IMG/VR virus record: IMGVR_UViG_3300022562_001240
Strand: one strand, 5' to 3'
Length of the DNA: 56,310 nucleotides
Source: a virus
The notes below the pieces were generated by a model. The model saw only the letters and a list, made by a program, of their open reading frames with translations, was not told the DNA's origin and did not search any database. The position numbers were made by a program, and so were the translations under genes. Below, piece after piece: positions 922-24,348 of this stretch (its first letter is position 1; each line of letters begins with the position of its first letter).

Positions 922-2015
922 ATAAAATAGTGGTCGCCGTCCTTTTCTCCCAGCAAGACGCCATCAGACTTGCGCCGCTGGCCGTCCGCAAAATCGGGCC
1001 GCAGAACACGATAATGATCAAACAAAGGCTTCCCGCCAATCTCTGGGCAGTTGTCCAAATGATCAACAACCTTGTTCATTGCTTCGGATGGATTCAGTTG
1101 GTAGATGGGATATGTTTTCGGCTTGTACTCAACCCGATTAAACAAGTTCCCTTGTGAACTTTCTTCGACATAGGCCATCCCTTCCGACTCTTCGATATAG
1201 GCCATCGCCTTCGTCATAGAATAAGGACGAACATCCACGGTGAACTTCACGCCGATCTGCTTGCCGAGAATGATCGATGCGGCTGTCAAAGAAATACGAT
1301 TGAAACCGCAACACTGCTCCAACAAATGCTTCTGTTGGATCTCCTCGATGTATCGTTCCACTTCGCTTGCCATGTCTGGCAGATTGAATTTCTTCAGATG
1401 AATGAGTCGATTTCTGGCTTCGTCGATATCACGCTGGTAAATGTTTTGATGTCGATAGAAGGTTGAGAAGTCCGCTGGGTGAGCGATCCAAAACGACTCT
1501 CCCTTCTTGTGCAGAACAGCGAGCCCCACTTCTTGTGAATCCTTGCGTTCTCGCATAAGCCGTCGCAAGCCACTGTCCTTAATGAAACGCACATTCATCA
1601 AGTGACTGTATGGCGAACCAATCCCGCCTGCAATCGTCTTGAACATCTCATGTTTGGCAAGTCCACGCTGAACAGATGCCAAGACCTCAGAAGAGAGACT
1701 AACAGATTTTCCGTATGAGACCAACTTGAGCACATCACAAGCATAACGGCTGAAGCTTCCTTCTTCACTCCCTACAAGCTGGCCGTCGAAAATCTCAAAC
1801 AGATCAGGGTGTGGGTTCTCCAGATCGATGCACTCGACAAACAGAGCGAGATTTACACCGAGTTCCTGTCCCAAGGCATCTGTGAGATCCTTGTCATAGT
1901 ACATCGGAACGTCTGTGAGAATACCCGAAAGGGGCGGCGTTTCTACAACGTCGCCCCTTTCAAATACTCGTTCCAAAATTTGGAGTTGTTGAGATTGAAC
2001 ATCCGTGTCAATCAT
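897..2015 (-). CDS. hypothetical protein (372 aa) with an internal MAYIEESEG / MAYVEESSQG tandem repeat
   Basis: Long ORF whose 3' end overlaps the upstream infC by 8 nt; no recognisable family. Confidence 0.5.
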   Translation of the reverse strand: MIDTDVQSQQLQILERVFERGDVVETPPLSGILTDVPMYYDKDLTDALGQELGVNLALFVECIDLENPHPDLFEIFDGQLVGSEEGSFSRYACDVLKLVSYGKSVSLSSEVLASVQRGLAKHEMFKTIAGGIGSPYSHLMNVRFIKDSGLRRLMRERKDSQEVGLAVLHKKGESFWIAHPADFSTFYRHQNIYQRDIDEARNRLIHLKKFNLPDMASEVERYIEEIQQKHLLEQCCGFNRISLTAASIILGKQIGVKFTVDVRPYSMTKAMAYIEESEGMAYVEESSQGNLFNRVEYKPKTYPIYQLNPSEAMNKVVDHLDNCPEIGGKPLFDHYRVLRPDFADGQRRKSDGVLLGEKDGDHYFICYWEPHE

Positions 2016-2544
2016 CCTTCGTCCTTTTTACTTCCACACGGGCCGTCACATTATGGCCCTCGAAACCCGGTGGCTTCTCCACCGTTGCGATATCTGAAAG
2101 CATCGCAATGACCTTGTTCAAGGCTTCGAAGCCCATGTCCTTATGGGCCTTCTCTCTGGCCTTGAATTTGACGACGAACTTCACACGGTGTCCCTTCTCT
2201 ATGAACTTCCGGGCTTGATTCGCCTTCGTCTCCAGATCGTGATCGCTGATCACATATCTGAAGGACAACTCTTTGTCCTTGTGGGACGCCGGTTGTTTCT
2301 TCTTCTTGCTCCTCTCGAACATGAACTTGCCGTAGTCCATGATCTGGCAGACTGGGGGCCGAGCTTGCGGAGCAACCTCGACGAGATCGAGACCAGCCTG
2401 TTTCGCTCGATAGAGAGCATCAGGCGTGGGCATGACCCCTAGATTCTGACCGTCCTGAATGACCCTGACTTCTTTGATGCGGATTCGCTCATTACAACGA
2501 ACGAAATCCTTCTTCTTTTCTGCCTTCTCGAATTTCTTTGGCAT
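2008..2544 (-). CDS. infC: translation initiation factor IF-3
   Basis: 178 aa, collinear with bacterial IF3 over its full length: ...IRIKEVRVIQDGQNLGVM...AGLDLVEVAPQARPPVCQIMDYGKFMFE... and C-domain ...KFVVKFKAREKAHKDMGFEALNKV.... Canonical ATG start at 2544-2542. Confidence 0.85.
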   Translation of the reverse strand: MPKKFEKAEKKKDFVRCNERIRIKEVRVIQDGQNLGVMPTPDALYRAKQAGLDLVEVAPQARPPVCQIMDYGKFMFERSKKKKQPASHKDKELSFRYVISDHDLETKANQARKFIEKGHRVKFVVKFKAREKAHKDMGFEALNKVIAMLSDIATVEKPPGFEGHNVTARVEVKRTKDD

Positions 2545-2557
2545 GTTTTGAGTCTCT

Positions 2558-4195
2558 CTAAACCTTCTTGGCTAGAGCAGTTGTCATCCTTTTAAGGCCC
2601 TCGGAAACATCTTTCCGTCCGACCTCTACATTTATCACAAAAAGCTTCTTGGAGTCAAGGGCTTCTTTAAGAACCTCATGCAACTGGGTTTCTGTAGAAA
2701 CCTCTCGGCCTTCCCCTCCACCAATCAGCTTTGTGACATCATGGTATTTCCAACGGGGAATATCGTTGAATTCACCGTCCAGCAAGAATCTCTCAGTCGT
2801 GTAACCGTCGTTGTTTAAGACAATCACGATGGGATTCAATTTGCGATTGACGATGGTGCCCAGTTCGGTCATGGACATCTGGAAAGCACCGTCTCCAACG
2901 ATCACGATAGGTCGCACGTCTGGCATAGCCGCCTGCACGCCCAAAGCTCCCGGAATGGCCGAACCCATGCTCGTATAGAAAGCGGGGCTCAGGAAGTGGT
3001 TCCGGTGGTGTACTGTAAGATTACCAGCACCAAACAGACTGTCGCCGATGTCGGAGACAATCGCCATGTTCTTGTCGAGAATTGAATCAATGGCCTCAAA
3101 CAGACGTTCTGTAGTTATCTTGGCTTCTGGTTTCGGCTCGAAAACCGGCTTCTTCTGTTTCACAGGCGGAAGTTCTGGAAGAGGCTTCTTGGTGAAGTCC
3201 ATCTTAAACAAAGAAGCACAGAAATCCTTGAACTGGATACCGGAGTAGTTGTGGTTTCTGACCTGCAACCCTTCAACGGTCGAAGAAATCACCTGACGCT
3301 TCTTAAACTTCGCTGGTTTGAAGCACAAAGTCATGTCGGTAAGCATTACACCGAACATCAGAAGGCAGTCAGAATCTTCCACCAGCTTGCGTGTCATCTC
3401 ATGGCTGCTATTGCCAGAGTAGATGCCAGCGAACAAACGATGTCGTTCATTGATGACCGACTTACTGAGCAATGTCGTTGCCACAGGAATGTCGGCACGT
3501 TCGGCGAAACGAATGAGTTGCTCGCCCAAATCGTAGCGGGCCAATTCCACACCGGCCAGAATGACAGGTTGCTTGGCTCCTTCGATCCACTCGGCCACTT
3601 CTTTGAGGGCTTCGCCGAGATTCTCTGTATCGGTAGCAGGAGCGACTGGCGTGCCCTGCTTGTACACATCATAGCTGATTGACTTCTTGGCGATGTCACG
3701 AGGCAACTCGATGTAAATCGGTCGCTTGTAGTGGTGCATTGCCTCGAAGGCCCTGTCAATCTCGTATCCGGCTGTGGCTGGATTGTCGAGGACGACGCTG
3801 GCGCAAGTGATGTTGTCGAACATCTTCTTCTGTGAATTGAAGCTGCCCACCATGTGATGCAGCAAGTAGCCCTCGTTTCGCTCATTCAGACCGGGGGCAC
3901 CGGAAATCACAACAAGAGGAGATCTTTCGGCATAAGCACATTGAACGGCGTTGATGACCTTGGCCGCTCCGACGTTGTATGTCACTACTACACAACCAAC
4001 ACCATTGACACGAGCATATGCGTCGGCAGCAAAGCCGGAATGATTTTCATCTGTGTTGTTGATGACTTCGATGTTCTCATAGTCCCAGAGTTCCTTATAG
4101 AAATCCAGAACGTAGTCGCCGGGTACGCCCATTACATGTCGAACCCCAGCGTTTTCCAATCGTTCAATGAGAAAACGGGAAACTAACATAGCCAC
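2558..4195 (-). CDS. thiamine-pyrophosphate-dependent 2-keto-acid decarboxylase (PDC/IPDC-like)
   Basis: 545 aa. The N-terminal VPGDYVLDFY matches the GDYNL motif of pyruvate and indolepyruvate decarboxylases. The C-terminal TPP-binding motif GDGAFQMSMTELGTIVNRKLNPIVIVLNNDGY (GDG...NN) is present. Confidence 0.8.
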   Translation of the reverse strand: MAMLVSRFLIERLENAGVRHVMGVPGDYVLDFYKELWDYENIEVINNTDENHSGFAADAYARVNGVGCVVVTYNVGAAKVINAVQCAYAERSPLVVISGAPGLNERNEGYLLHHMVGSFNSQKKMFDNITCASVVLDNPATAGYEIDRAFEAMHHYKRPIYIELPRDIAKKSISYDVYKQGTPVAPATDTENLGEALKEVAEWIEGAKQPVILAGVELARYDLGEQLIRFAERADIPVATTLLSKSVINERHRLFAGIYSGNSSHEMTRKLVEDSDCLLMFGVMLTDMTLCFKPAKFKKRQVISSTVEGLQVRNHNYSGIQFKDFCASLFKMDFTKKPLPELPPVKQKKPVFEPKPEAKITTERLFEAIDSILDKNMAIVSDIGDSLFGAGNLTVHHRNHFLSPAFYTSMGSAIPGALGVQAAMPDVRPIVIVGDGAFQMSMTELGTIVNRKLNPIVIVLNNDGYTTERFLLDGEFNDIPRWKYHDVTKLIGGGEGREVSTETQLHEVLKEALDSKKLFVINVEVGRKDVSEGLKRMTTALAKKV

Positions 4196-4204
4196 ACCTC
4201 TTCC

Positions 4205-5293
4205 TTATATTTCGACCGTTGGAGAATCCTCGATCTTAATGAGGAAACCCTCCCCACCAATCGGGAACCTTCGCACCCATTCCACTCCTTCTCCCAGAAT
4301 ACATCCAAAGTAATATGGAGTCAATGATTCATCTGTGAAACTGGGGATGAGCGAAATGTCAACCAGACTGGCACTCCCCTGCTCATTATAAGAAACAGAA
4401 GATTCTGATGGAATACCAGTTTGATTTAAGACAACAGAACCATCGTTGTGTACGAGGCCAGTAAAGGTGCTGCCAGAGTACAAATGGGTCTCACCTGCCC
4501 ACGGTGTATCCGGGAGCAAGTATTTGTCTGCTATTTGATCATAGGAAAGACGCACAGAACTTTCTGTGTGAGTTGTGCCTGTGTAAAAGAAACCATCGGT
4601 ATGCGTGTGGACTTCGCCAATCCAGTTCCCTCCGGGGAGGTAATATACCACATCGATCATCTTGATTAACTTGAACTCGAACCAATAGCAACCGGGAAGA
4701 CAAGTATCTTCTGGTTGCCACTCATAAACCAAGTTCGCACTGACCAACACGTCTTTCGTAACGGTGCCGTCAACTTGTTGCTGATCTTCGAAGACTAATT
4801 CGGCTTCGGCGGGAGCATTCAACATGCGGAAAATCCGCATCTTGGTCCCCTTCTTCCAAGAGGAAGCAGTTGTGCCATGGTAGCCTCGCTGGACTCGCAC
4901 CAGACTATTTCCTTCATCAAATCCCAGCACCAACATTCTTTCGGGCAAACGCACTCGGTCCATGACAATGATGTCACCGACCATAATCTGCTCGAACCCC
5001 ACGTTGTCGGCCAATGGGAAATAGGTGTCGGTCTCTGTGATCTTGCACTTGAGTTTTGCCAAGGCCCACATGTTGGCCTCAACTACTAATCCCTGCACAT
5101 CCAGCGGACCTTCACAGTCTTCCACTGAGACTTTGAATGGAGGCTTGGTGTCGTGTCGTCTGATGACGAAATCTGGGCACACGTTCGAAGGACATCCGAA
5201 CTTGTCTGGGCACACGTTTTGTGAGCCGCACCCGCTACCTGATCGTAAACTGAATTGGACTGCCATACTCGTATATAGAGTTAGCAGGATCAA
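4205..5293 (-). CDS. hypothetical protein (362 aa); Cys-rich N-terminus (CPDKFGCPSNVCPDF)
   Basis: Long ORF on the dominant strand; no recognisable family. Confidence 0.45.
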   Translation of the reverse strand: MILLTLYTSMAVQFSLRSGSGCGSQNVCPDKFGCPSNVCPDFVIRRHDTKPPFKVSVEDCEGPLDVQGLVVEANMWALAKLKCKITETDTYFPLADNVGFEQIMVGDIIVMDRVRLPERMLVLGFDEGNSLVRVQRGYHGTTASSWKKGTKMRIFRMLNAPAEAELVFEDQQQVDGTVTKDVLVSANLVYEWQPEDTCLPGCYWFEFKLIKMIDVVYYLPGGNWIGEVHTHTDGFFYTGTTHTESSVRLSYDQIADKYLLPDTPWAGETHLYSGSTFTGLVHNDGSVVLNQTGIPSESSVSYNEQGSASLVDISLIPSFTDESLTPYYFGCILGEGVEWVRRFPIGGEGFLIKIEDSPTVEI

Positions 5294-5841
5294 ATGTCGT
5301 AAACGCCCAGTTGTCTCAGACGCTCAGACCAATCTGCGATCCACGCCACGCTGCCTTGGAATTTTTCCAAACGAATACCGGCCATGCGTGCCATCTCGAA
5401 AGTCTTGTCTCTCCAAGACCCATTTTGCAGAGAGGAATTGCGGTCGCCTTGAAAATCGAAGTAGACGATTCGGCCAATTCCTTCATCGATGATTTCCAAC
5501 ATGCACTTCGGACAGGGCAATGCTGTGACATAGAGCGTGGCATCGGTGAGATCTTCGCCCTTCGAATGTTTGATCGCATTTGACTCGGCGTGCTTGACGA
5601 GATCATAACGATTGATGCCTTCCTCATCTGGGGCGGGGCGATGCCAACTGAAAGAAGTGTCGTCAATCAGTCGAGGCGGTCCATTGTAACCTGAACCCAG
5701 CGGCTCGTTGTTCTGACTGATGATCTGAGCCCCAACTTGAGTGTTGGGGTCTTTGCTGAAGCCAGCGTGAATCCAAGCAAGACCCATGTATTTCAGATCT
5801 CGCTCTGGAACTTCCCGAGGTGGAGTGCGGTGTTGGTTCAT
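5290..5841 (-). CDS. dCMP / cytidine deaminase family (zinc-dependent CDA fold), copy 1
   Basis: HAESNAI ... TALPCPKC: the H-A-E and PCxxC zinc ligands of the deoxycytidylate deaminase family. Confidence 0.75.
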   Translation of the reverse strand: MNQHRTPPREVPERDLKYMGLAWIHAGFSKDPNTQVGAQIISQNNEPLGSGYNGPPRLIDDTSFSWHRPAPDEEGINRYDLVKHAESNAIKHSKGEDLTDATLYVTALPCPKCMLEIIDEGIGRIVYFDFQGDRNSSLQNGSWRDKTFEMARMAGIRLEKFQGSVAWIADWSERLRQLGVYDI

Positions 5842-5859
5842 TGAGAATCCCTTCTCGTG

Positions 5860-6357
5860 TTAGAAAACTTGAAGACTCTGCAAGTATTCAATCTTGTAAT
5901 CCTTGCGGTTCCACCGGGACTTCCAACAATTCAGCCGGTGCTTTTGTTCCTTTGTGAGATGCCGTTTGATTACAGATGTTGGCACAGGAATGTCCATCTG
6001 CCAACCATATGTCTCTTCCCCAAGTCGAATGGTGTAGTTGACTGGTATGGAGCCGACCTCTACCCAATCAACCCCTTCGACAACAAAGACATCCCGAACC
6101 GTGTCATAACATTCACGGCTCAACGGCTCACCGAATACAGGCACAGCCAAAAGGCGATTCTCGTCCTCGTTCTTTCGGACGGCCACCGCACAGATGTATG
6201 TGCCCTGCATCGATTGTTCGACTTGAACTGCTCGTTTGATCTCACGGCTATCTTTAAGATGATTCTTACGACACGCCTCCACCAACTCCTCATTGGTGGC
6301 GTCATAAAAAATCGACTCATCATAGCTGGAGAACCAGATGTCTTGTAAGCTAGGCAT
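5860..6357 (-). CDS. hypothetical protein (165 aa)
   Basis: ORF on the dominant strand with tight spacing to its neighbours. Confidence 0.4.
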   Translation of the reverse strand: MPSLQDIWFSSYDESIFYDATNEELVEACRKNHLKDSREIKRAVQVEQSMQGTYICAVAVRKNEDENRLLAVPVFGEPLSRECYDTVRDVFVVEGVDWVEVGSIPVNYTIRLGEETYGWQMDIPVPTSVIKRHLTKEQKHRLNCWKSRWNRKDYKIEYLQSLQVF

Positions 6358-6376
6358 AGCTCACATTCTCACAGAT

Positions 6377-7024
6377 TCACTCAAAAATTGCAAGCAGAAC
6401 TTGTGCCTCAAAGAGTTCCGCCTCGTCTTCAACAATTGAAGGCTTGGGTTCTCTAAGAACAGCACAGGCTACGGTCGCCCGGAAAAATTTGGTGAAATTC
6501 TGTCGGGAATGTCGGAACTCATGGGCCAAGATGCTTGCAATGCGACCATTATTCTCGCAGTACAGGATCTTGTTGATTGTTAAGTCTTTGTCCATGTAGT
6601 TGTACTTGGCGTAGCAACCACTGTACTCGACTTCCCAGATGAGGTGTCCGCTGGCATGGCGATCTCGGACCCAGTGTGCTGCCTCGGGGCAGACCTGATC
6701 CAAAATTTGCAACGGCTCTTGAAGGGCATCCCAAGCCTTGTCTTCATCCCACTTCAACACCAGATGTGTGTGAGGCGACTTGAATGCCAGTTGGCGTTCG
6801 GGGCTGAATCGCCCTAGCGTGCCAATCTGTGGTACATCATCACCAACGGTGATGTCATAAAGCGTCGTGATGCCGAGGGCAAAGATGATTGCGAGTCCCG
6901 TAATCAGCGAGTATTTCGCTGTGGCAACTACGACTTCTTTTCCGATTTCTCTGAGTCTTTTGAAGACTCCTTTTCTGTTTCTTTCTCCTGTCTCTCTTGA
7001 GCTATTTTCCTGAGACGCTGCCAT
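6377..7024 (-). CDS. membrane-anchored protein with an HExxH motif (possible zinc metallopeptidase)
   Basis: One predicted TM helix (LITGLAIIFALGITTLY). ILAHEFRH motif present. The ATG at 7024 is preceded by GGAGGA. Confidence 0.4.
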   Translation of the reverse strand: MAASQENSSRETGERNRKGVFKRLREIGKEVVVATAKYSLITGLAIIFALGITTLYDITVGDDVPQIGTLGRFSPERQLAFKSPHTHLVLKWDEDKAWDALQEPLQILDQVCPEAAHWVRDRHASGHLIWEVEYSGCYAKYNYMDKDLTINKILYCENNGRIASILAHEFRHSRQNFTKFFRATVACAVLREPKPSIVEDEAELFEAQVLLAIFE

Positions 7025-7290
7025 GCGTCCTCCGTTTCTTTATTCTTTGTTACGTCTGTCTCCTTTTCGTCGTCAGACGAGGGCTGGTCCTCAACCTTCT
7101 TCTGTTTGGCTTCTTCATCGTCAAGATCCTTTTCTTTACGCTTGGCATCGCCAACCATTGAACCGATACTACCGCCGAGATCCTGAGCCATCTTGACCCA
7201 GCGATCCAAAGAATAATCTGGGGCCTGATCCTCACTCAAGCGAGGACCAAATATCTCCCTCTGTTTCTTCCACTTCTGAAAAGACCCCAT
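6928..7290 (-). CDS. hypothetical K/E/D-rich low-complexity protein (120 aa)
   Basis: ORF with a GAGGAG ribosome-binding site. It overlaps both neighbours by 58 and 97 nt, so it may be spurious or frame-shifted. Confidence 0.3.
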   Translation of the reverse strand: MGSFQKWKKQREIFGPRLSEDQAPDYSLDRWVKMAQDLGGSIGSMVGDAKRKEKDLDDEEAKQKKVEDQPSSDDEKETDVTKNKETEDAWQRLRKIAQERQEKETEKESSKDSEKSEKKS

Positions 7291-7540
7291 ATTCCGTCAA
7301 CTCCTCGTAGATCTCGTTCAATCGACTACGGTATGTAGCAAGATCGTGGGTCATTCTTGTGACCGCTTCATCTACTTCGAGTTGCAAAGCGTCGGATGGG
7401 CCTTCATTCCAAGATGCCTTTTCAGCCCTCGCTTTTTGCTTAAAAAGAAGGCATCGCATCTTTACTTCGGCAATCATTCCCATGATTCCTGAAGCCTCGT
7501 CAAAAAGCTCCTGAACCTTATCTGCACTGTCCTTAAACAT
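7232..7540 (-). CDS. hypothetical protein (102 aa)
   Basis: ORF on the dominant strand. Confidence 0.4.
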   Translation of the reverse strand: MFKDSADKVQELFDEASGIMGMIAEVKMRCLLFKQKARAEKASWNEGPSDALQLEVDEAVTRMTHDLATYRSRLNEIYEELTEYGVFSEVEETEGDIWSSLE

Positions 7541-7583
7541 AGTTGCACCCTCCTTGGCGCAGCATCATCCCCACCGTCATTCT

Positions 7584-7904
7584 TTAAGAAAGCCGCTTTC
7601 CTGTCAAGCGATACTTCCCCGATTCCAACCGCTCAAGGAGATCCATGTTCTCCTCGGTCAGTTCGGATTTGGCCGCAGCGTGGGCCTCTGTCAATCGGCG
7701 GTATTTGCTCTGAAGTTTGTGAAGCATCCTCTCGCTGCAATAGTGGCCCGTATGGTCCACGAAGTTCCTGATCGTCCCGAAGACCAGATAGTAGCGAACA
7801 AATGCCACCTGAAGGTCTGTCTGGAAGTATTTCAGCAGATATTGCTTTTCCTTTGGGACTTCGATATCGAAGAACTCGCCCGAGATGAATTCAAGATCCT
7901 GCAT
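7584..7904 (-). CDS. hypothetical protein (106 aa)
   Basis: ORF on the dominant strand. Confidence 0.4.
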   Translation of the reverse strand: MQDLEFISGEFFDIEVPKEKQYLLKYFQTDLQVAFVRYYLVFGTIRNFVDHTGHYCSERMLHKLQSKYRRLTEAHAAAKSELTEENMDLLERLESGKYRLTGKRLS

Positions 7905-7910
7905 ACCCTA

Positions 7911-8327
7911 TCAAAGCAAGGGTGGGTCAATAATCTCGACGCCATAGCAGAATTTGAAGTACAAGAGGAGCAATCCGCCGAAGTAGTCCTTCGGCAAATG
8001 GAGAGCGGCCAATTCACGCAACAGCCCCAGCAAGCTGTGGACTTGCCATGTGACAGTGTTGTCGGAGTAGTTGGGATCGGCAGGAATGAGCGGCAAGCAA
8101 CGCTCATGGATGAAATCGAGGCAGCGATCATCAAGCTGGGTTCGCAGCAGAGTTTTGACGCTGTGCTCGGAAAGCAGGTCGTGCTTGGGGATGGGTCCGC
8201 CACAGTAAAAACTTTTGGACTTAAAGAACGTCTCGATGCTCTCGACGGCCAGCCGTCTTAAATCAACGGCATGGTCTCCTTTCTCAAAGGGATTGTCTCG
8301 GCAATCCCGGCGTGGCTTCCGTGGCAT
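7911..8327 (-). CDS. hypothetical protein (138 aa)
   Basis: Start moved to the internal ATG at 8327 (MPRKPRR...), which has a GGAGGAG ribosome-binding site 5 nt upstream. The longer track ORF has no ribosome-binding site. Confidence 0.45.
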   Translation of the reverse strand: MPRKPRRDCRDNPFEKGDHAVDLRRLAVESIETFFKSKSFYCGGPIPKHDLLSEHSVKTLLRTQLDDRCLDFIHERCLPLIPADPNYSDNTVTWQVHSLLGLLRELAALHLPKDYFGGLLLLYFKFCYGVEIIDPPLL

Positions 8328-8453
8328 ATCGTCTCCTCCGTGAGAGCATGTGGACCACTTTATTATTAGCTGACCGGGCGAGGAAATCAACCCCGAATTC
8401 CATTGATAGCCAATACATACTTTAAGAAGGTTGAGAATTCAAGGAGGTAGCCC

Positions 8454-9180: not shown

Positions 9181-9189
9181 TTTGATCTC

Positions 9190-9483: not shown

Positions 9484-9487
9484 AGTT

Positions 9488-10003
9488 TCACCACACAAAT
9501 ACTTCTTTCCCAAAGTCAGAAATCAGGATTGATTTCTGGTGGTCGATTTCGTGTTGAAAGACGACGCCCTGTTGAATAAGTGACAGGGCGTCGTCGATCT
9601 CAACTATTTTCAAACCATTTTTCTCTTCAAGCATATAACCAAACAAATGAACTTTGCAAAAGCGTTTCACTTCGAAGAGTCGCAATTGACCCTCTGGGGA
9701 CCGAATTGACAGACACCCCTCGACAGAGACGACCTGTTCTTCGTTTTCTGTAAGTGGACTGTAATCGCAGTTGATAAAGTAACCGTACTTGTCTTTAGGA
9801 ACAAGAGGACATTTGCCGTCACCTCTCACAAGGAACAGTTTCCACGGTATCCCGACTTGGACGGCACTGATACCAATACCACGCTCCTTGTCGCAGACCT
9901 CTTGCATTTCTTGACAGACCTTGTAGACCTTGATCAAGTCGTCCAAAGGGACATCTACGATGTCGTCAAGTTTGGGGATTTGCCCCGTTTCCACAATCAT
10001 CAT
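9488..10003 (-). CDS. def: peptide deformylase
   Basis: All three PDF motifs are present: GIGISAVQVG (GxGxAAxQ), EGCLS, and QHEIDH (HExxH). Confidence 0.85.
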   Translation of the reverse strand: MMIVETGQIPKLDDIVDVPLDDLIKVYKVCQEMQEVCDKERGIGISAVQVGIPWKLFLVRGDGKCPLVPKDKYGYFINCDYSPLTENEEQVVSVEGCLSIRSPEGQLRLFEVKRFCKVHLFGYMLEEKNGLKIVEIDDALSLIQQGVVFQHEIDHQKSILISDFGKEVFVW

Positions 10004-10335
10004 ACGTCATTTGCCTTTGATTCATCACTTGCCGCTGGAGGAGTCGCCGTCAGCTTCTTATACAGGTTAGTTACCTGAACCGACAGCCATTTCTTCAGTT
10101 GCTCTGGGTCCGATCTCAGATGCACAGGGATCTTTAAGACCACAGCCTTGACTTCTTCATCAACTGGCGTGCCGATGACGATTGGATCATCATCAGGGTC
10201 CAGCTTGACAGCCTGTTCAATCAGATTGCCAACATACGAAGAAGCAGACAGCCCCTTTCGCTTGGAGAATTTCTTAAGCTCCTCATGTAGCTCTGGCCGG
10301 ATGGCGATGCTCATGACTTTCTTGTTTTTGCTCAT
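10000..10335 (-). CDS. ribbon-helix-helix (CopG/Arc-like) DNA-binding protein
   Basis: Start placed at MSKNKKVMSIAIRPELHEELKKFSKRKGLSASSYVGNLIEQ, which is a beta-strand-helix-helix pattern. This start is 5 nt downstream of the rpsU stop codon. Confidence 0.45.
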   Translation of the reverse strand: MSKNKKVMSIAIRPELHEELKKFSKRKGLSASSYVGNLIEQAVKLDPDDDPIVIGTPVDEEVKAVVLKIPVHLRSDPEQLKKWLSVQVTNLYKKLTATPPAASDESKANDV

Positions 10336-10342
10336 AACTACC

Positions 10343-10665
10343 TCACCTGTTTTTGTCTCTCCGCTTTTTCTTGCCCTTGCCTTGATTTGCCATGGCTTTC
10401 TTGATGAGTCCGGTCGGAGCCTTGACACGTTCGCCACGTTGAAGCTTTTCTTCCAGCAATTCCATCTGGAGCTTCTTCACTGCGGCCTTCCGCTTCTTAC
10501 GCTGCTTCTCAGACTTGCTTTCGTAGAACTGGTGTTCCTTGAAATCGTGCATGATGCCAGCGTTGCTCACTCTCCGCTTGAACTCAGTGAACATTTCCTT
10601 GAAGTTCTTGTGGGGATCGTTGTACTTCTTCTTGAGTTCAACTCTTACTCGTGTGGCATTAGCCA
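10343..10665 (-). CDS. rpsU: ribosomal protein bS21
   Basis: MANATRVRVELKKKYNDPHKNFKEMFTEFKRRVSNAGIMHDFKEHQFYESKSEKQRKKRKAAVKK matches the S21 pattern (FxxFKR...G...E...FYEKPS..R.RK). Start placed at the internal ATG at 10665, which has an AAGGAG ribosome-binding site 7 nt upstream. Confidence 0.75.
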
Positions 10666-10727
10666 TGGTCAGTCTCCTTACTTGTGATGCCTCATCATAG
10701 CGATTGGGCGAAGCCCATAGTAGATCG

Positions 10728-13479: not shown

Positions 13480-13487
13480 AAGAAAAA

Positions 13488-13515: not shown

Positions 13516-13549
13516 CATTCAATCAGGAGTAATGTCAGATCGTGAGACG

Positions 13550-15607: not shown

Positions 15608-15637
15608 TTCGTCCTTCCTTGACAAGTTGCGGAGCAG

Positions 15638-16783: not shown

Positions 16784-16786
16784 GAT

Positions 16787-17233: not shown

Positions 17234-17248
17234 TCCTACCTCCAGCGA

Positions 17249-17743
17249 TCAGTTTTCCTTGACCACCCAAGGCGACGGTTCGTGCTCGACGCCGAGACTA
17301 CTGCTCACCTTCTCGATCCTTTTTCTTATGGATTCAATTTCGGACATCAGCTTGCCTTCTTCGCCCTTGCGAGCCTTTTGTTCAAGCTTGTCCCCTGCTC
17401 CCATTTTTGCCATTTTGTTTTCGACCTTAAAGAGTTGATTCTTGAGTGATTCAATTTCTTTAAGCAGGTCTTCACTGACCCACACAGGAGGCGTAGTCTT
17501 GTGATCTGGACCGGCACTGTCTGGATAGACAGGGTTTGGAGTCTTGTGCTCCTCTTGAAGAAGCTGATCCTCGGAGTCCATGAAATCCCAATACGCATCC
17601 TGAGCGTCGTCGCCTAAAACGGAAGCGGCGAACTCAGAAGGTTGAGGCGGTTCGGGTGCTGGGTGGACATTATCTTGTTGGGCTTGATCCCACATGTCCG
17701 CCCACATCTCGATCTCTGATCTATAATCATTGTACTCAGACAT
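17249..17743 (-). CDS. hypothetical acidic protein (164 aa)
   Basis: ORF on the dominant strand. Confidence 0.4.
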   Translation of the reverse strand: MSEYNDYRSEIEMWADMWDQAQQDNVHPAPEPPQPSEFAASVLGDDAQDAYWDFMDSEDQLLQEEHKTPNPVYPDSAGPDHKTTPPVWVSEDLLKEIESLKNQLFKVENKMAKMGAGDKLEQKARKGEEGKLMSEIESIRKRIEKVSSSLGVEHEPSPWVVKEN

Positions 17744-17775
17744 AGTAATGTATGTAGCGTCTGAGAACTGAAATT

Positions 17776-18207
17776 TCAGATTTCAATGGTGGACTTGAAG
17801 GTGTTTGTTTCGGGATCAAATTTGAGAGTTGTGATCAATTCCCAGTGCGGGTCGGCCTTCGGGACGTACTCTTTTTGTGTGTAGAACATGGCTTCTATGA
17901 CGAATTCGTACTCTTTTGCCGCCACTTCGTCATCTGACATGCCCGCCAGAAGATCCTCGCACATCTCCCGACAAATCCGGTAGCAATCCGGCATCCGGGC
18001 GCAATGGATCTTGTTCATAACCATCGAAGCCTGAAACGCCTTGTCAATCTTCAGCAGATTGATGATGTCTCGCTTCTCAGGGCCATCGCCGAAAATAGCG
18101 ACGGCAGAGAACTTCGCCATCACCTGCCCAGCTTTCGGGCCGTGCTTGCGGGTGTCGAAGAAATAGTCGTGAAAATTGCTGTCGTCGATGATGACTTCTT
18201 CTGTCAC
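17776..18207 (-). CDS. hypothetical protein (143 aa)
   Basis: Its start overlaps the dnaE fragment stop by 4 nt. Confidence 0.45.
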   Translation of the reverse strand: MTEEVIIDDSNFHDYFFDTRKHGPKAGQVMAKFSAVAIFGDGPEKRDIINLLKIDKAFQASMVMNKIHCARMPDCYRICREMCEDLLAGMSDDEVAAKEYEFVIEAMFYTQKEYVPKADPHWELITTLKFDPETNTFKSTIEI

Positions 18208-21086
18208 AGATCCTCCAGAATGTCGAAGCCTTCTTCGAAGGTCAGGTCCGTCAGGATCGACTCATCGGGCTTCTCAGGCTTGGGTATCGTCTTCATTACT
18301 CTGATGCGATAATCCTCATCTTTCGGCGGCAGTGTGTTCCGCTTATGCTTCGGAACGCTGTCGAAGGTGAAAGTGTTATATCCACCAGATGGGGGCCTCA
18401 TGCGAACTTTCAGCAGAGCACCCTTCTTCAATTCGTCCTGCCATCTGGTGTAGTCGTCTGACCAGATATTCATCTTGGCCTGCCGACTATTCGCATCCTC
18501 AAATTCAACAGAGTAAAAAACGACACCATTCTTGCTGGTTCTTTTCCGAACCGACAAGATCTTCACTTCGATGGGCGCAGGGGCGTCACCATCTTTGTCG
18601 CATTCTTCAAGGAAGTAGTCGATGGTGCGACCAGTGAAATCTGGACTCGATTCCAATTCATGATTCCATTGGAAACCATAGTATTGAGACTCGGCCATCG
18701 GATATGTCCGCTGGTCAAAGACCATCATGTAGTCATTCAGCACGGCTACTTCTTCTTCGTCCAACTTCACCGACGCCGCATTGAACCCATCCATCGTGAT
18801 CGGATTCTCATCATCGTCCTTCTCATTCTCCTCGAATCGACGCACGCTGGTTGCTCGTTTGTTCGACAAATCGCTGAGCATCTTCGCCACAGAAACCTGT
18901 CGCACTCGATCCTCACCCTTGTACTTGTAGGGCACGTCACGGACGATATGTTCAAAGCGTTCTTCCCAGAGCTTCTCAGCCTCTTCAGTGAAGCGAGCCA
19001 TCTTATCGAAGTCGGGATCGCTCTCAGTGATCTCAGTGAGAAGCAACTCACGCAATTCTTCATCCTTCTTGACCATCGAGCCTTCGAAGCGTTGTTGACG
19101 CTGCCGACGCTTGGTGATTTTGTCTTTGAAGAACTCATGGAACTTCCGCAAATGTTCTCTGTCATAGTGCGGCTCCAGTTCGTCGAACACGCCCAGAGCG
19201 ATGAGGGCTTTGAGCGGCGCACCATCCGTTCCAAATTTTGTAAGGAAGTCCGGGAAGTCCTTGTACGGCTGATTCTCCACGATGCGATCAGCCACCGCTT
19301 CCCCGATGCCCTTGATGTTCTTGAATCCGAAGTAGACCTTCCCATCAGCGATGTTGAAGTTCATCTTCGACTTGTTGATGTTCACCGGACAAACCTCAAT
19401 GCTATGTTTCTTGGCATCCAGTTTGTACTCACGGAACTTCTCGTGATCCTTCTCACACATCAGCGTGGCTGCATAGAACTCCAGAGGATAATGCGCCTTC
19501 AAATACAGCAGTCGTGACGAGATGTAGGTGTAAGCACAAGCATGGGACCGGTTGAACCCGTATTCGGCGAATGACTCAATTTGATCCCAGAGATCACTGA
19601 CGAACTCCAGATTCGCCCCGAGGTTCTTCTGGCCGTTCGTCAAGAACATCTCTTTGTACTTGGCGAACTGAGACACCTTCTTCTTTGAGATGGCTTTACG
19701 CACTTTCTCAGTGTGCATGTCAGGAATGTTCCCGACGATACGCAAGATGTCCATGACTTGTTCTTGGTACACAAGAACGCCGTAGGTCTTGCCGAGACTT
19801 TGTTCCATGATCGGATGGATGTTATATGGCTCGCCGCCCTCACGGTCGCCATCACGCCACTTCTTGCGTTTGCAGTAGCGGGCGTCCATCCCCATGTTCA
19901 ACGGGCCGGGACGATAGAGAGCCGAATAGGCCACCAGATCTTCGAAGCTGGTCACACCACCACGCTTCACCAGCTTGCGAATACCTTCGCCGTCAAACTG
20001 GAAGATACATCGCAGGTCGGCTTTGTTAGCCATCTCAATCGCAGCAGGATCATTGAGATAAGAGATGTCAGACCAATCGGTGTCCCCCTCTCTGGCACAG
20101 ATGGATGTAAGACCATATCGCTTCTTCACGAGTTCTGCCGCCAGAGCGATCTGCATGAGGTTGTTGATGACCAGAAGGTCGAACTTGATCAAGCCCACCG
20201 GCCCAAGGTCTTGATGGGCGAGGCCCTCAGACCATGCCGAGCAGATTACACCGTTGGGATGCTGCTTGTTGACCTTCCGCACTTCGAGCGGCACGAAACC
20301 ATCGATTCGCTTACTGGAGATAATCAGACCTCCAGCATGGACGCCAGAGTGAGTGTTGCGGCCCTGAAAGAGTTTTGCCGCTTCGGCGATCTCTGGGTTC
20401 TCTTCGCAGTAGAGGGCAAACTTCACATATGCGGTGTCGGCAGGGACGCTGCCTTTGGCTTTCCGAAGTTCAGAGAACTTCTGAACCCAATCCACATCGC
20501 CGGTCTCCAACTCCTTCTTAATCTCATCCTGCTCTTCTTTGGTGGCGATCTGGAAGGTGGCGATTTCAAAGATCTTGTCCCACTCCAGCGGCTTGCCGTC
20601 GTCATCCTTATCTTCAAGCATCGACGTGATGCCTTGAATCTCATGAATGTCAGCCCCATGCACACGGGCCATATCCAAGATGGATGACTTGATGCCCGCC
20701 GTTCCGTAGGTGCCGATCTCACAAACCTTCTCTTGGCCGTAGGCTTGAGCCGCCCACTGCTCTTTGAGGTAGTCTCGCACCGGCTTCAAGAAGTCGATGT
20801 CGATATCGGGGAACTCGCCCTGAATCCAAGTGTTGGGCCGCTCGATGTCGAACTGTCCTGTGAGATCCAACAGGTAGTCGATGAGGTTGTTGTGTTCGTT
20901 CTCTGGGAAGATTAAGTTTTCCGCCCGAAACTTATCGTGAAGGCCAAGAAGGTACTCATGCTCAGCCTGAGCATCGATTTCCTTAAGCTCTGACTTCAGC
21001 CGTTCCTTGTACCTGACATCCTGCATCAAGCCTCGCTTCTCCATAGATGCAAGGCACAAGCGGATTAGCTTGTCTCGTTCCTTCAT
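18204..21086 (-). CDS. dnaE: DNA polymerase III alpha subunit (DnaE-type), C-terminal fragment: palm catalytic site, fingers, beta-binding and OB regions
   Basis: 960 aa. Contains FPDIDIDF (catalytic Asp pair), GRNTHSGVHAGGLIIS, IKFDLLVIN (FDFLGL-like) and YGFNRSHACAYTYIS (FNKSHAAAY-like), all in the DnaE order. Confidence 0.85.
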   Translation of the reverse strand: MKERDKLIRLCLASMEKRGLMQDVRYKERLKSELKEIDAQAEHEYLLGLHDKFRAENLIFPENEHNNLIDYLLDLTGQFDIERPNTWIQGEFPDIDIDFLKPVRDYLKEQWAAQAYGQEKVCEIGTYGTAGIKSSILDMARVHGADIHEIQGITSMLEDKDDDGKPLEWDKIFEIATFQIATKEEQDEIKKELETGDVDWVQKFSELRKAKGSVPADTAYVKFALYCEENPEIAEAAKLFQGRNTHSGVHAGGLIISSKRIDGFVPLEVRKVNKQHPNGVICSAWSEGLAHQDLGPVGLIKFDLLVINNLMQIALAAELVKKRYGLTSICAREGDTDWSDISYLNDPAAIEMANKADLRCIFQFDGEGIRKLVKRGGVTSFEDLVAYSALYRPGPLNMGMDARYCKRKKWRDGDREGGEPYNIHPIMEQSLGKTYGVLVYQEQVMDILRIVGNIPDMHTEKVRKAISKKKVSQFAKYKEMFLTNGQKNLGANLEFVSDLWDQIESFAEYGFNRSHACAYTYISSRLLYLKAHYPLEFYAATLMCEKDHEKFREYKLDAKKHSIEVCPVNINKSKMNFNIADGKVYFGFKNIKGIGEAVADRIVENQPYKDFPDFLTKFGTDGAPLKALIALGVFDELEPHYDREHLRKFHEFFKDKITKRRQRQQRFEGSMVKKDEELRELLLTEITESDPDFDKMARFTEEAEKLWEERFEHIVRDVPYKYKGEDRVRQVSVAKMLSDLSNKRATSVRRFEENEKDDDENPITMDGFNAASVKLDEEEVAVLNDYMMVFDQRTYPMAESQYYGFQWNHELESSPDFTGRTIDYFLEECDKDGDAPAPIEVKILSVRKRTSKNGVVFYSVEFEDANSRQAKMNIWSDDYTRWQDELKKGALLKVRMRPPSGGYNTFTFDSVPKHKRNTLPPKDEDYRIRVMKTIPKPEKPDESILTDLTFEEGFDILEDL

Positions 21087-21099
21087 GGTTCGACCTTCC

Positions 21100-22128
21100 C
21101 TAGTCGTAATAGTCTGGCGGTACTTCTGGTTTACCGAAGCCTATGTTCCCTTCAAAGTCTTTGTCTTGGACGGGTTCCTTCATTTTCTGAAGGGTCTTGA
21201 TGGCTTCATCGTATTCGTCGCCAATGATCACCACTGCCACAAAGAGTTCTTTAAGGTGGGCCAGCGACATCTCGTCAGTATCCTTTACCCACTGATTTAA
21301 GTCAATGTCGAGTTTGGAGATGTTCTCTTCGCCAATGAGGTGCTTAAAGTAAATCTCTCGTGATTCCGCAGTTGGGAAGCCGATGCGGAATCGTTTGTCG
21401 AATCGACTGGGCCGATTCATGATGCGAGGTTGAAGAGCGTGCGGATAGTTGGTGGTCGCCAAGAATATCGTTTTGTCAACTTCGTTGGCTCCATCAAGGA
21501 GATTTAAGATCTCCGATTCATTGTGCATTTCAAGAAGAGCGTCCAAGTCTTCCATCACAACAACGACTGGCGTGTCTGACTGGATTTGCTTCAGTTTGCG
21601 ATAGCCCTCAACAAAGAGATATGGCTCTTGGAATTCAAGGACCACGCCGCCACGCTTCACCACATCTTGCATGATGAACTGAACGGTGCTGCTCTTGCCG
21701 CTCCCCGGAGGCCCATGAAGAATGATGCCTCTCTTGTAGGTGATGCCATATTCCCTGAAGACATTTTCTCTGTCCCAGAACTTCTGTACTTCGCTGATCA
21801 CACGATCCGACTTTGTGTCAGGAAACCTTAAGAGACCCTCTGTTTTTACAGGAATCTTTTCGAAGAAGATGCCCACGTTGGGGGCACTCTTAATCTCATA
21901 GACTCCCGGCACCAGCCTGTCCACAGTGCGACTGGATGGGACAAAGATGCGATTGTCCGAAGTGGACCATTGACAGTATGTTTGTTCGATATCTTTTTCT
22001 TCTTCATCAACAGAGCAGTTTCCGTAAGCTGGCATAGCATTCCTCCTTGATTTGGCACGGGGAGCCTTCCCCATCTTGTCTAGGGTTCTCAGAGCCTTCC
22101 TGAATCTCTCATCCAAACTTTTAGACAC
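21100..22128 (-). CDS. AAA+ ATPase (classic AAA family)
   Basis: Walker A ILHGPPGSGKSS, Walker B VVVMEDLD, and a sensor-2-like NRPSRFDKR. Confidence 0.8.
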   Translation of the reverse strand: MSKSLDERFRKALRTLDKMGKAPRAKSRRNAMPAYGNCSVDEEEKDIEQTYCQWSTSDNRIFVPSSRTVDRLVPGVYEIKSAPNVGIFFEKIPVKTEGLLRFPDTKSDRVISEVQKFWDRENVFREYGITYKRGIILHGPPGSGKSSTVQFIMQDVVKRGGVVLEFQEPYLFVEGYRKLKQIQSDTPVVVVMEDLDALLEMHNESEILNLLDGANEVDKTIFLATTNYPHALQPRIMNRPSRFDKRFRIGFPTAESREIYFKHLIGEENISKLDIDLNQWVKDTDEMSLAHLKELFVAVVIIGDEYDEAIKTLQKMKEPVQDKDFEGNIGFGKPEVPPDYYD

Positions 22129-22191
22129 ACCTGCCTCCGTGCATAGATACCGTAGTATAAGAAACTACGGATTATCCGGCAAGGAGAATAT

Positions 22192-22569
22192 ATGGCCCTA
22201 GAATACAAGCTGGAATTCAACACACCAAGCGGTGCTGCTGATGATTCCGTGTACATCCATCTGAGAGTTGACCCTGTTTATCGCACCAGAATTGGCAAAG
22301 AAGCCTATTCGCTGCTCGACGCCGCAGACAAACAACCCCTGATTACAGAGCTTTTTGACATCGCTGGCGTCGTGGAAATCTCCACCAAGGCTCACCGAGT
22401 CTGGCTGATGAAGTCGCCTATCTTTTCTTGGCAAGAAGTGTTGCAGCCGGTACTCTTCTTGTTAAGAGACCGATTTGGAGAAACATCGATCTCGCCACTG
22501 CCGGGATCTGCTGAAATCGATGGCTCTGGATTGCGACTAGACTCGGACACGAATCGGAGAACAATATGA
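22192..22569 (+). CDS. hypothetical protein (125 aa)
   Basis: AAGGAGA ribosome-binding site upstream. Its end overlaps the next ORF by 4 nt (translational coupling). Confidence 0.45.
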   Translation: MALEYKLEFNTPSGAADDSVYIHLRVDPVYRTRIGKEAYSLLDAADKQPLITELFDIAGVVEISTKAHRVWLMKSPIFSWQEVLQPVLFLLRDRFGETSISPLPGSAEIDGSGLRLDSDTNRRTI

Positions 22570-23126
22570 CAGAACTGCTCCCCGGACCTTGGGTTGGACA
22601 CGAACAGGATTTCGACAGAATACGACCCCAGATCCCAGAACAGGGAGATATCATCGAGTTTGGTGTCTTCCAAGGCGGCACCACTCGACAACTGGCAACT
22701 TGGGGTCGCCGTGTCTGGGCACTGGATACCTATGGCGGAATGCCAAGTGAAGACTTCAGTGCCGAACATGGCGATCACGATTTGCCGGGCAAGTTCAACC
22801 CGTCAGAAGGCCCATGGGGCGAAATGAGCGTTTGGAGAATGTTCAAGGATTTCCCAAACATCTGTCCGCTCAAGGGTCGATTTGTAGAGACCCTACCTAT
22901 CATTCCACCAAGTATCCAGATTGCCTTTGCTTATATGGATTGTGATCTGTACGAATCATACCATCAGGCTTTCTCGTGGCTGGAGAAGCATCTAATGCCG
23001 AAAGCCCACGTTTTGATCGATGATTACGGGGCCTGTGCTGGCTGCCGCAAAGCTGTTGACGAATGGTCGGCAGATAAGCCTATCGAATGGATCATCGCCT
23101 GCAAGCACTTCATTTGGAAACAATAA
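22566..23126 (+). CDS. TylF/MycF-family SAM-dependent O-methyltransferase
   Basis: Motif I IIEFGVFQGGTT and the family-typical DCDLYES. Confidence 0.6.
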   Translation: MTELLPGPWVGHEQDFDRIRPQIPEQGDIIEFGVFQGGTTRQLATWGRRVWALDTYGGMPSEDFSAEHGDHDLPGKFNPSEGPWGEMSVWRMFKDFPNICPLKGRFVETLPIIPPSIQIAFAYMDCDLYESYHQAFSWLEKHLMPKAHVLIDDYGACAGCRKAVDEWSADKPIEWIIACKHFIWKQ

Positions 23127-23898
23127 CTTGACGAGGCACCTTTCCCTCATCCCACAACGACTGAATGGGAGAGATGATTGATGGCAAAGATGGATCTCCA
23201 TAGACCCTGAATACTGTTGGGAAATGCTGAAGATACAACGCCGAGTATTCATCCAGATAGTCCTCGATGGTACAATCTGTCATCAAAAACCCCTCTGAGA
23301 ACATCCGTTGTCCATTATCTTGATGGTGAAGCAGTTCGCCAAAGCGTTTCTTGACTTTCTCTAGCGACCTATAATGGCATATGCCATTGGAAACAGCCGC
23401 CCCTTTCGTTTGGACAACAATAGTCTGCCTTTTCTTTCCACGCATAATTTTTTTGGAGAAATACATCGGCCCACAAACACTACACAAGTAATCACACCTT
23501 TTGTTCTCCAACATCCTAATCAATTCTGCATCAAATCCATTCAGAGTCGGGATGTAGTCGTCCTCCATCAAGATGTAGTAGTCAAACTGAGAGCCGTACT
23601 GATCAAAGATGCGGGAGTATTGGCCGTATGAGTAGCCCTTGTTTGGAGTGCGGACAACATGAATAGGGACACCTGACTTCAGTTGAGACAGGCTATTCAT
23701 GAATGAAGTGTATCTCCCGCTCTCCTTTGGATTCTCGGGCCAACCCACTGTGATTTGATCCAGATTGTGTTGAATCGAATCTAAGCGGGCCAGATGTTCT
23801 TCGATGTAGCAACGCCTTTCATCGAAACCGCATCTGACTCGCTTGCCGCTCCATGTGGCAATCATGTAGTTTGTACGCATATCGTATGTACGATACAA
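23110..23898 (-). CDS. hypothetical protein (262 aa), possibly a glycosyltransferase
   Basis: Contains an EDD acidic motif (ILMEDDYIP); no firm family assignment. Confidence 0.4.
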   Translation of the reverse strand: MYRTYDMRTNYMIATWSGKRVRCGFDERRCYIEEHLARLDSIQHNLDQITVGWPENPKESGRYTSFMNSLSQLKSGVPIHVVRTPNKGYSYGQYSRIFDQYGSQFDYYILMEDDYIPTLNGFDAELIRMLENKRCDYLCSVCGPMYFSKKIMRGKKRQTIVVQTKGAAVSNGICHYRSLEKVKKRFGELLHHQDNGQRMFSEGFLMTDCTIEDYLDEYSALYLQHFPTVFRVYGDPSLPSIISPIQSLWDEGKVPRQVIVSK

Positions 23899-23914
23899 AT
23901 TTTGGACTGGCGCA

Positions 23915-23955
23915 CGAAAAAACCCGCTTCCCCTTTGCTGTTGGGGAAGCGGGTT
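23915..23955 (-). terminator. rho-independent terminator downstream of the tmRNA-like gene
   Basis: 13-bp stem AACCCGCTTCCCC / GGGGAAGCGGGTT with a 9-nt loop, followed by UUUUUU on the minus strand. Confidence 0.65.
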
Positions 23956-23968
23956 CTTCTAACTTGAG

Positions 23969-24348
23969 TGGACCGGACGGGATTCGAACCCGTGTCTTGC
24001 TCTGCCGTCAAAGCGGCGTCTACGATCATGTCTCTCGATTTGAGTTGTCGGCCAGCCGGTCGCTCATGAGAGCACAGCTACCATGCCAGCTTAGTCGATT
24101 TGAGTTTCGCCCATCTCTCCTACGACTCGGAGATTCAGGACTATCCTGATGGCGGTACGTCGCAGACCTATCAGGCATCGGTCATTGACGCTTCGGACGG
24201 GCCTAGCCCGTCACTGCTTACGCAGCCATGCGAAGAGGAGTCGAAGTTTCGACAATTATGGTTTTGAATGACTTTTAACGTGGCCCGTCATTCAACCACG
24301 GATCGCAGCCATCTTCTCAGAACAGCCAATCGATTCCAATTCCAGCCC
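23969..24348 (-). ncRNA. ssrA: tmRNA-like gene (transfer-messenger RNA)
   Basis: The 3' end is GGGUUCGAAUCCC (T-arm), then CCGGUCC and a discriminator A. The 5' end GGGCUGG pairs with that strand using two G-U wobbles. It is followed by GAAUUGGAAUCGAUUGG, which resembles the tmRNA 5' consensus GAUUCUGGAUUCGACGGG. An internal frame GAA ACU UCG ACU CCU CUU CGC AUG GCU GCG UAA would encode the tag ETSTPLRMAA, ending Ala-Ala-stop. No 5' acceptor partner for a normal tRNA lies within 90 nt. Confidence 0.5.

Follow-up and report, generated by a model that had tools for sequence, protein, structure and literature searches.

A conserved translation gene set with an ATG-initiated IF-3 gene in the probable genome of an uncultured huge phage

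We analysed a 56,310-nucleotide stretch of DNA (the window) from the IMG/VR virus record IMGVR_UViG_3300022562_001240, which carries genes for initiation factor 3 (IF-3), ribosomal protein bS21, peptide deformylase (PDF) and a transfer-messenger RNA (tmRNA). A preliminary description of this DNA had assigned the four components to four separate loci; there are really three, because the genes for bS21 and PDF form one contiguous cluster with a ribbon-helix-helix (RHH)-like gene between them. The comparisons below draw on related loci, cited by our own L numbers, and on LR756511.1, a 595,163-bp record named 'uncultured phage' that is by far the best GenBank match at the protein level.

The IF-3 gene lies at 2008-2544 on the minus strand and encodes 178 amino acids from an ATG start. 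Both domains of the factor were recognized by Pfam, IF3_N at residues 18-84 (2.7e-30) and IF3_C at residues 91-169 (3.1e-25), and the basic linker between them reads ERSKKKKQPASHKDKE in the translation. The protein scored 161 bits against the NCBIfam infC equivalog TIGR00168 (cut-off 60), matched phrog_9787 at 1.3e-43 and aligned end to end with solved IF-3 structures, including PDB chain 5me0_Y over residues 12-167 (2e-37). The Pfam, TIGR00168 and PDB matches thus agree on a full-length IF-3, as the preliminary description had proposed. The best matches in GTDB were only 44-48% identical and scattered over Acidobacteriota, Pelagibacteraceae, Bacillota and the candidate phyla radiation (CPR), in a pattern-seeded scan of species genomes that may miss closer relatives. 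These phyla are unrelated, and no donor can be named. More than 100 other homologues were 57-77% identical to the window protein, some of them on contigs of the clade described below.

Although the window protein shares its two-domain architecture with cellular IF-3, its gene differs from cellular infC in start codon and in surroundings. Its ATG sits 13 nt past the stop codon of the upstream gene, which encodes a thiamine pyrophosphate (TPP) enzyme; with no more than a weak purine-rich stretch ahead of the ATG, translational coupling of the two genes is plausible. The nine in-frame codons between that stop and the ATG include no ATT, ATC, ATA, GTG or TTG; with no alternative start upstream, we take the ATG to be the real one. 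It was kept in the five distinct relatives examined (L083, L084, L085/L086 and LR756511 among them; L001, which is identical to the window, was not counted), and GAGG or AGGA motifs lie upstream of it in most of those named. By contrast, among 80 bacterial infC loci there were at least 25 in which the stretch from the upstream stop to the conserved N-terminal domain held no ATG, GTG or TTG in frame, and many had an ATT exactly at the position of the phage Met1. Cellular infC is also followed by rpmI and rplT in an operon: rplT came after infC in 47 of the 80 bacterial loci, whereas tblastn searches that used the L20 and L35 proteins of E. coli as queries found neither rplT nor rpmI in the window or in the phage loci. 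The AUU or AUC start of infC is the target of autoregulation by IF-3, which is lost when AUU is changed to AUG (PMC5499595, with reference to Butler et al. 1987). The canonical ATG of the window gene and the autoregulatory AUU of cellular infC had both been pointed out in the preliminary description; our data bear out the former and the literature agrees with the latter. On this comparison, the phage IF-3 would be expected to escape the feedback. We found no paper in a literature search that makes the start-codon point for a phage IF-3.

The second locus holds bS21, the RHH-like gene and PDF. The bS21 homologue (10343-10666, minus strand, 107 amino acids) begins with an ATG at 10666-10664 behind AAGGAG; the homology claimed for it beforehand stands, whereas the end given as 10665 was one base off. 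The protein scored 41.1 bits against Pfam Ribosomal_S21 (1.5e-10; threshold 27) and 41.4 bits against TIGR00030 (cut-off 28.95), and it matched both bS21 chains of solved ribosomes in the PDB (1.7e-6) and phrog_21469, 'ribosomal protein S21'. It is longer than the norm of approximately 55-75 amino acids: in an alignment with E. coli bS21 as the reference, we found an insertion of about 8 amino acids near the N terminus and, at the C terminus, a basic extension of some 30 amino acids, reading GERVKAPxGxIKK and continuing into a K/R-rich tail. This extension was kept in L083, L084, L085 and L088 but was absent from the 81-amino-acid S21 of LR756511.1 and from E. coli bS21. No match to the window bS21 was found by tblastn among 50,697 phage records at an E value of 1e-3.

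Directly after bS21, at 10000-10335 on the minus strand, lies a gene for a 111-amino-acid protein that had been called ribbon-helix-helix. Residues 1-44 matched the 'Arc-like repressor' families phrog_3180 (5.3e-7) and phrog_582 (3.2e-6), and the protein had no Pfam or NCBIfam match. Its AlphaFold2 (AF2) model, with a pLDDT of 75.5, has helices at residues 14-26 and 31-44; the Foldseek matches of the model were mostly RHH proteins (Arc, CopG, VapB and FitA), but with E values of at least 0.6. It is thus reasonable to regard the N-terminal 45 or so residues as an Arc-like ribbon-helix-helix, chiefly on the PHROG matches. The gene was syntenic in all relatives, and its family has 146 members, some of which, among the few contigs inspected, lie on long contigs of the clade.

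PDF, the third gene of the cluster, occupies 9488-10003 on the minus strand and encodes a divergent protein of 171 amino acids. It scored 54.3 bits against Pfam Pep_deformylase (1.6e-14; threshold 22.8) and matched phrog_2890 at 3.5e-11 and deformylases in the PDB at 3e-6. Its translation contains GIGISAVQ, EGCLS and HEIDH, all intact, and these motifs align with those of the Helicobacter pylori deformylase. The Pfam match and these three catalytic motifs uphold the assignment made from the letters of the DNA.

The third locus is a one-piece tmRNA gene (ssrA) at 23966-24348 on the minus strand. A tmRNA-like gene had been suggested at 23969-24348, and both the Rfam covariance model and ARAGORN identified it as a full-length tmRNA: RF00023 gave 88.5 bits (gathering threshold 47, E value 4.5e-33) and was covered from position 1 to position 374 of 374. 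The tag frame at 24218-24253 on the minus strand (ARAGORN, coding part 96-131 of the gene) reads VETSTPLRMAA followed by a stop. The resume codon is GUC (Val), where Ala or Gly is more usual. In the acceptor stem, 5' GGGCUGG pairs with 3' CCGGUCC and retains G3:U70, and the 3' end is ACUC, which means that CCA is not encoded and must be added. An intrinsic terminator at 23917-23953 on the minus strand, 13 nt past the 3' end, consists of an 11-bp G+C-rich stem, a 9-nt loop and T6; we read it directly in the sequence, as a pattern scan with a loop limit of 8 nt missed it. A sigma-70 scan around the gene found no promoter positioned to drive the tmRNA.

Homologous tmRNAs occupied the same syntenic position in L087, L088, L089 and LR756511. 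Their identities to the window tmRNA (73% for L087, 55% for L088 and 46% for LR756511) fell in the same order as the protein identities, and the Rfam scores of the relatives were 110-130 bits, with 122 bits for LR756511. The tag frame was kept with substitutions: L087, the closest, reads VEETRPLRLAA in the same frame, and the tags of all four tmRNAs end in L/M-A-A (VEETRPLRLAA, ...LRLAA and ...FAMAA in the relatives). A fragment left at an attachment site was ruled out as the origin of the window tmRNA by its full length, its own terminator and its synteny in diverged relatives. The open reading frames (ORFs) that flank it, at 23110-23898 on the minus strand and 24399-24938 on the plus strand, had no Pfam, PHROG or NCBIfam match and no counterpart in the relatives examined. 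In L088 (NCBI JACCDG011110207.1), an FtsH-like Peptidase_M41 protein of 642 amino acids (5860-7788) is encoded directly upstream of the tmRNA (7967-8366); in bacteria, proteins that carry the SsrA tag are substrates of FtsH.

We compared all window proteins with 50 kb of LR756511.1 by tblastn and found that it carries the same genes, all on one strand and with their order unchanged: IF-3, TPP enzyme, PDF, RHH-like gene, S21, DnaE, AAA ATPase, tmRNA and SpoVR/DUF444/PrkA. IF-3 was 40% identical, PDF 46%, the RHH-like protein 33%, S21 41% and DnaE approximately 40%, and in LR756511.1 these five genes and the tmRNA lie within about 16 kb on one strand. The two elements are alike in this ordered block and in the ATG start of IF-3. 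They differ in that their proteins are 33-62% identical with no match at the nucleotide level, in the shorter S21 of LR756511.1, in its tag (ANPEFAMAA) and in DnaE, which is one piece there and is split in the window around the tmRNA and AAA region. Other records in the accession series of LR756511.1 (LR756501/503, 735,411 bp; LR756504, 636,363 bp) agree in size with genomes described by Al-Shayeb et al.

The block was found on further contigs as well. A viral contig in IMG/VR carries an IF-3 that is 72% identical, with the same neighbours. The order S21, a gene of approximately 105 codons, PDF and then dCMP deaminase, TPP enzyme and IF-3 recurred on contigs of 693,098 bp and 221,276 bp, and a 139,627-bp contig has the part from S21 to PDF plus DnaE. 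In L087, L088 and L089 the tmRNA lies just upstream of the AAA ATPase and DnaE. The lists of the top 120 matches to IF-3 and the top 120 matches to DnaE shared 21 'longest contig' sizes. A DnaE-seeded search of viral and metagenome contig collections gave no confirmed relatives. Throughout, the block was syntenic between relatives with proteins only 40-70% identical. The retained tag frame, PDF motifs and IF-3 ATG are signs that selection acts on the genes. Judged from these comparisons, the translation block appears to be a module that a clade of huge phages has conserved and passed on vertically. A lineage of very large phages would thus stably keep parts for initiation, nascent-chain processing and ribosome rescue, rather than gaining them sporadically. 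The same block is carried by related contigs of 613-693 kb (L084/L087, ENA ERZ26692762 ctg84252), which, if they are complete phage genomes, are near the largest reported phage genome (735 kb).

DnaE (DNA polymerase III alpha) serves as the syntenic anchor of the block. Its C-terminal part, at 18204-21086 on the minus strand, has 960 amino acids, matched positions 436-1054 of the phrog_405 profile (5.6e-137) and was 41.6% identical to its counterpart in LR756511.1; homologues with E values of 1e-100 or lower numbered 855 and occurred on metagenome contigs up to 693 kb. The N-terminal part (29840-31249, minus strand, 469 amino acids) matched positions 34-439 of the same profile (1.7e-95) and corresponds to 38079-39389 of LR756511, where it is contiguous with the C-terminal part (L002 35868-39389). 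In the window the two halves are separated by about 8.7 kb that holds the AAA ATPase, the tmRNA and several ORFans, an arrangement also seen in L087 and L088. Some members of the clade have a DnaE of 1,280-1,370 amino acids with intein or homing-endonuclease domains. The AAA ATPase, at 21100-22128 on the minus strand (Pfam AAA, 2.5e-14), separates the tmRNA from DnaE in all relatives (L002, L087 and L088).

Taken together with the gene content of the window, these relatives make it likely that the window is a stretch of replication and metabolism genes from an uncultured huge (jumbo or mega) bacteriophage with a four-part translation gene set. The clade to which this phage belongs probably includes the 595-kb LR756511.1 and metagenome contigs up to approximately 0.69 Mb. 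IF-3 and DnaE proteins identical to those of the window are on record on a contig of 238,888 bp, above the 200 kb taken to define a huge phage, and relatives lie on contigs of 221-693 kb. Megablast of 25 kb of the window and a sensitive blastn search with the tmRNA found no match in the phage collection, which shows that the window is not a deposited phage at the DNA level. IF-3, S21, PDF, the RHH-like protein, PrkA, SpoVR and DUF444 all fall within PHROG phage families. The replication and nucleotide genes are the split DnaE, a DHH phosphoesterase, two dCMP deaminases, ThyA and DHFR; an HldE-like enzyme, a heptosyltransferase and GlpX represent sugar metabolism; methyltransferases, the PrkA/DUF444/SpoVR triad and a ClpP-family protein are also present, and many ORFs had neither a Pfam nor a PHROG match. 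One strand carries 62 of the 81 ORFs. The genes mostly begin with ATG, and a Shine-Dalgarno core precedes 42 of 82 first starts, compared with a background of 8%. bS21 is the only ribosomal protein encoded in the 56 kb, and ARAGORN and Rfam found no tRNA or rRNA there. The preliminary description had spoken of a phage-like element and not of an ordinary bacterial chromosome; the synteny with LR756511.1, the relative in IMG/VR and the lack of cellular operon partners support this. We rejected an ordinary bacterial chromosome because gene context, synteny and the absence of those partners all argue against it.

How might such a gene set act during infection? The phage may equip host ribosomes with parts of its own for initiation and ribosome maintenance. 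Beginning at AUG, the phage IF-3 would be made independently of the IF3-sensitive AUU or AUC start that throttles cellular infC, and an excess of IF3 could further repress host infC, tighten start-codon stringency and penalize non-canonical starts. Raised stringency would in turn favour the AUG-rich, Shine-Dalgarno-led mRNAs of the phage. The phage bS21 might replace or supplement host bS21, which binds loosely to the 30S platform close to the anti-Shine-Dalgarno sequence, and the phage PDF could keep N-terminal processing of formyl-Met chains abreast of the burst of phage proteins. The tmRNA is predicted to be charged by host AlaRS and delivered by SmpB, either the host protein or a phage copy encoded outside the window; it would then free ribosomes stalled on broken mRNAs and tag their products (...MAA) for Clp-type proteolysis. 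This scheme corresponds to the 'deliberate remodelling' of initiation and ribosome rescue that the preliminary description had proposed; the observation behind that proposal is confirmed, and our comparisons lend support to the interpretation, which extrapolates from gene content to function.

Several observations weigh against a phage that redirects translation in this way. Domain and profile searches found no capsid, portal, terminase or tail gene in the window, where the sole structural-looking match is an ambiguous ClpP-family protein. Because no hallmark gene for virion or packaging was found, the assignment to a phage rests on the relatives, that is, on the synteny with LR756511.1 and on the IMG/VR contig; sequence comparison makes this a strong but indirect case. 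Pfam searches, which covered most of the larger ORFs and the majority of those about as long as SmpB, gave no match to the SmpB or integrase families; the tmRNA would need host SmpB or a copy elsewhere in the >239-kb genome. The window PDF falls below the cut-off of the NCBIfam equivalog TIGR00079 (50.2 versus 103.95 bits). IF-3 is preceded by a weak purine-rich stretch, AGAGAGA, with no clear Shine-Dalgarno sequence. Similar suites of translation genes also occur on some large plasmid-like elements, according to Al-Shayeb et al. (PMC7162821). One alternative is that the DNA belongs to a huge non-viral extrachromosomal element, resembling a megaplasmid, or to a fragment of a small symbiont genome, in which the translation genes would serve the replicon or the cell. 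The missing structural genes, the size of the related contigs (up to 693 kb) and the many metabolic genes (TPP enzyme, GlpX, HldE, ThyA and DHFR) would fit such an element. However, the closest record was deposited as a phage, among the accessions of a study in which structural genes were the criterion for a phage, and another relative is in IMG/VR. The membership of seven window proteins in PHROG families, the single ribosomal protein without rRNA or tRNA in 56 kb and the absent cellular operon partners also speak against it, and we consider a non-viral origin improbable. More improbable still, in our judgement, is that the genes are genuine homologues carried as neutral passengers, recently taken from hosts and without a role in infection, with the tmRNA a leftover of integration at ssrA. 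Integration at tmRNA genes is common and some prophages contain ssrA fragments (PMC9004378), and huge phages gather many cellular-type genes (PMC7162821). Against recent capture, the tmRNA is complete and has its own terminator, domain searches of most of the larger ORFs gave no integrase family, the whole block is syntenic among diverged relatives, and the tmRNAs have diverged in step with the proteins. The best bacterial IF-3 matches are more distant from the window protein than its more than 100 closer homologues are, and the catalytic motifs and the tag frame are preserved.

A different question is whether the genes redirect translation or only sustain it. They may do no more than top up a translation apparatus that decays in a long infection, with no redirection towards phage mRNAs, and we regard this as a real possibility, albeit one with the balance of probability against it. 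PDF works on any nascent chain and tmRNA on any stalled ribosome, with no known selectivity for particular mRNAs. Maintenance is also the role that Al-Shayeb et al. suggest for elongation factors and PDF (PMC7162821). By contrast, the conserved ATG of the phage IF-3, set against the self-limiting AUU or AUC of cellular infC, and the clade-specific tail of bS21 are more easily explained if the phage copies behave unlike the host copies, although neither feature is decisive. In its strongest form, the remodelling scheme would make the block of IF-3, bS21, RHH-like gene, PDF and tmRNA a core module of ancient origin and vertical inheritance in a distinct phage clade, with genomes of approximately 0.2-0.7 Mb and hosts that use Shine-Dalgarno sequences. 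The AUG-started IF-3 would then be an active weapon that escapes feedback, shuts off the AUU-started host infC and raises stringency, and the tailed bS21 and the Val-resume tmRNA would create phage-specialized ribosomes and a phage-specific tagging route. We put forward this full version tentatively and think it rather unlikely to hold in every part.

The gene set as such has precedents. IF1/IF3, S21, PDF, tmRNA and SmpB were listed for huge phages by Al-Shayeb et al. (2020), who saw in such genes a means for phages to intercept host translation and rescue ribosomes (PMC7162821). The S21 proteins of those phages have N-terminal extensions, whereas the larger extension of the window S21 is C-terminal. 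The largest genomes in that study, the Mahaphage clade, have predicted Bacteroidetes hosts; by contrast, the heavy Shine-Dalgarno use of the window may point to another host group. The cultured Sinorhizobium jumbo phage AP-J-162 (471.5 kb) combines tmRNA, IF-3, S21 and formylmethionine deformylase in one genome and in addition has 66 tRNAs and L7/L12 (PMC11242549). Its likeness to the window is in gene content: its IF-3 gene adjoins clpX, whereas that of the window follows the TPP enzyme, and the IF-3 of its relative Phosso (PV764938.1) was 39.6% identical to the window protein. We found IF-3 homologues in 97 of 50,697 phage records, including jumbo phages of the GAP32 and CBB types, which together make up PHROG family 9787, and tmRNAs occur in approximately 2.3% of phage genomes (PMC9004378). 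In light of these records, the list of Al-Shayeb et al. and AP-J-162, the preliminary description overstated how uncommon it is to find IF-3 and a tmRNA together. Phage bS21 has likewise been described (Mizuno et al. 2019; Chen et al., PMC9723584), and the window resembles those cases as a large phage with an S21 homologue; it differs in the length of 107 amino acids, in the conserved basic tail and in the lack of a tblastn match among the phage records.

The window is thus a previously undeposited member of an LR756511-like clade that displays a published phenomenon. What may be new is modest: the order of the block, the C-terminal tail of bS21, the Val-resume tag and the conserved ATG start of the phage IF-3. 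The single addition to published descriptions is this last feature, an ATG conserved in place of the self-limiting AUU or AUC, which offers a simple, testable handle on viral override of a host feedback loop.

Other genes of the window lie further from the translation set. Directly upstream of IF-3, at 2558-4195 on the minus strand, the three-domain TPP enzyme resembles acetolactate synthase; its pairing with IF-3 is kept in every relative, including LR756511.1, at 53-76% identity. The triad of SpoVR, DUF444 (YeaH-like) and PrkA (YeaG-like) genes lies at 33858-35459, 37286-38530 and 38611-40695, all on the minus strand; it is also present in LR756511.1, and the window has a heptosyltransferase and an FkbM methyltransferase inserted between its members. 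The sugar genes, all on the minus strand, comprise an HldE-like heptose kinase/adenylyltransferase (41984-43351), a GT9 heptosyltransferase (35459-36454) and the fructose-1,6-bisphosphatase GlpX (51874-52875), and the heptose genes hint at a Gram-negative host.

The ClpP-family serine protease is encoded at 31976-32659 on the minus strand (Pfam CLP_protease, 2.4e-19). It scored similarly as 'head maturation protease' and as 'ATP-dependent Clp protease', below every curated cut-off, and could be either a prohead protease or one that degrades tmRNA-tagged proteins. A plus-strand gene island at 46317-50235, over which the AT skew is reversed, ends at 49540-50235 in a gene that combines a zinc finger with a TnsA-like endonuclease domain (5.8e-12), and it may be a mobile or homing element. 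Two dCMP/cytidine deaminase paralogues, at 5290-5841 and 29343-29822 on the minus strand, are approximately 32% identical and share the 56 kb with ThyA and DHFR.

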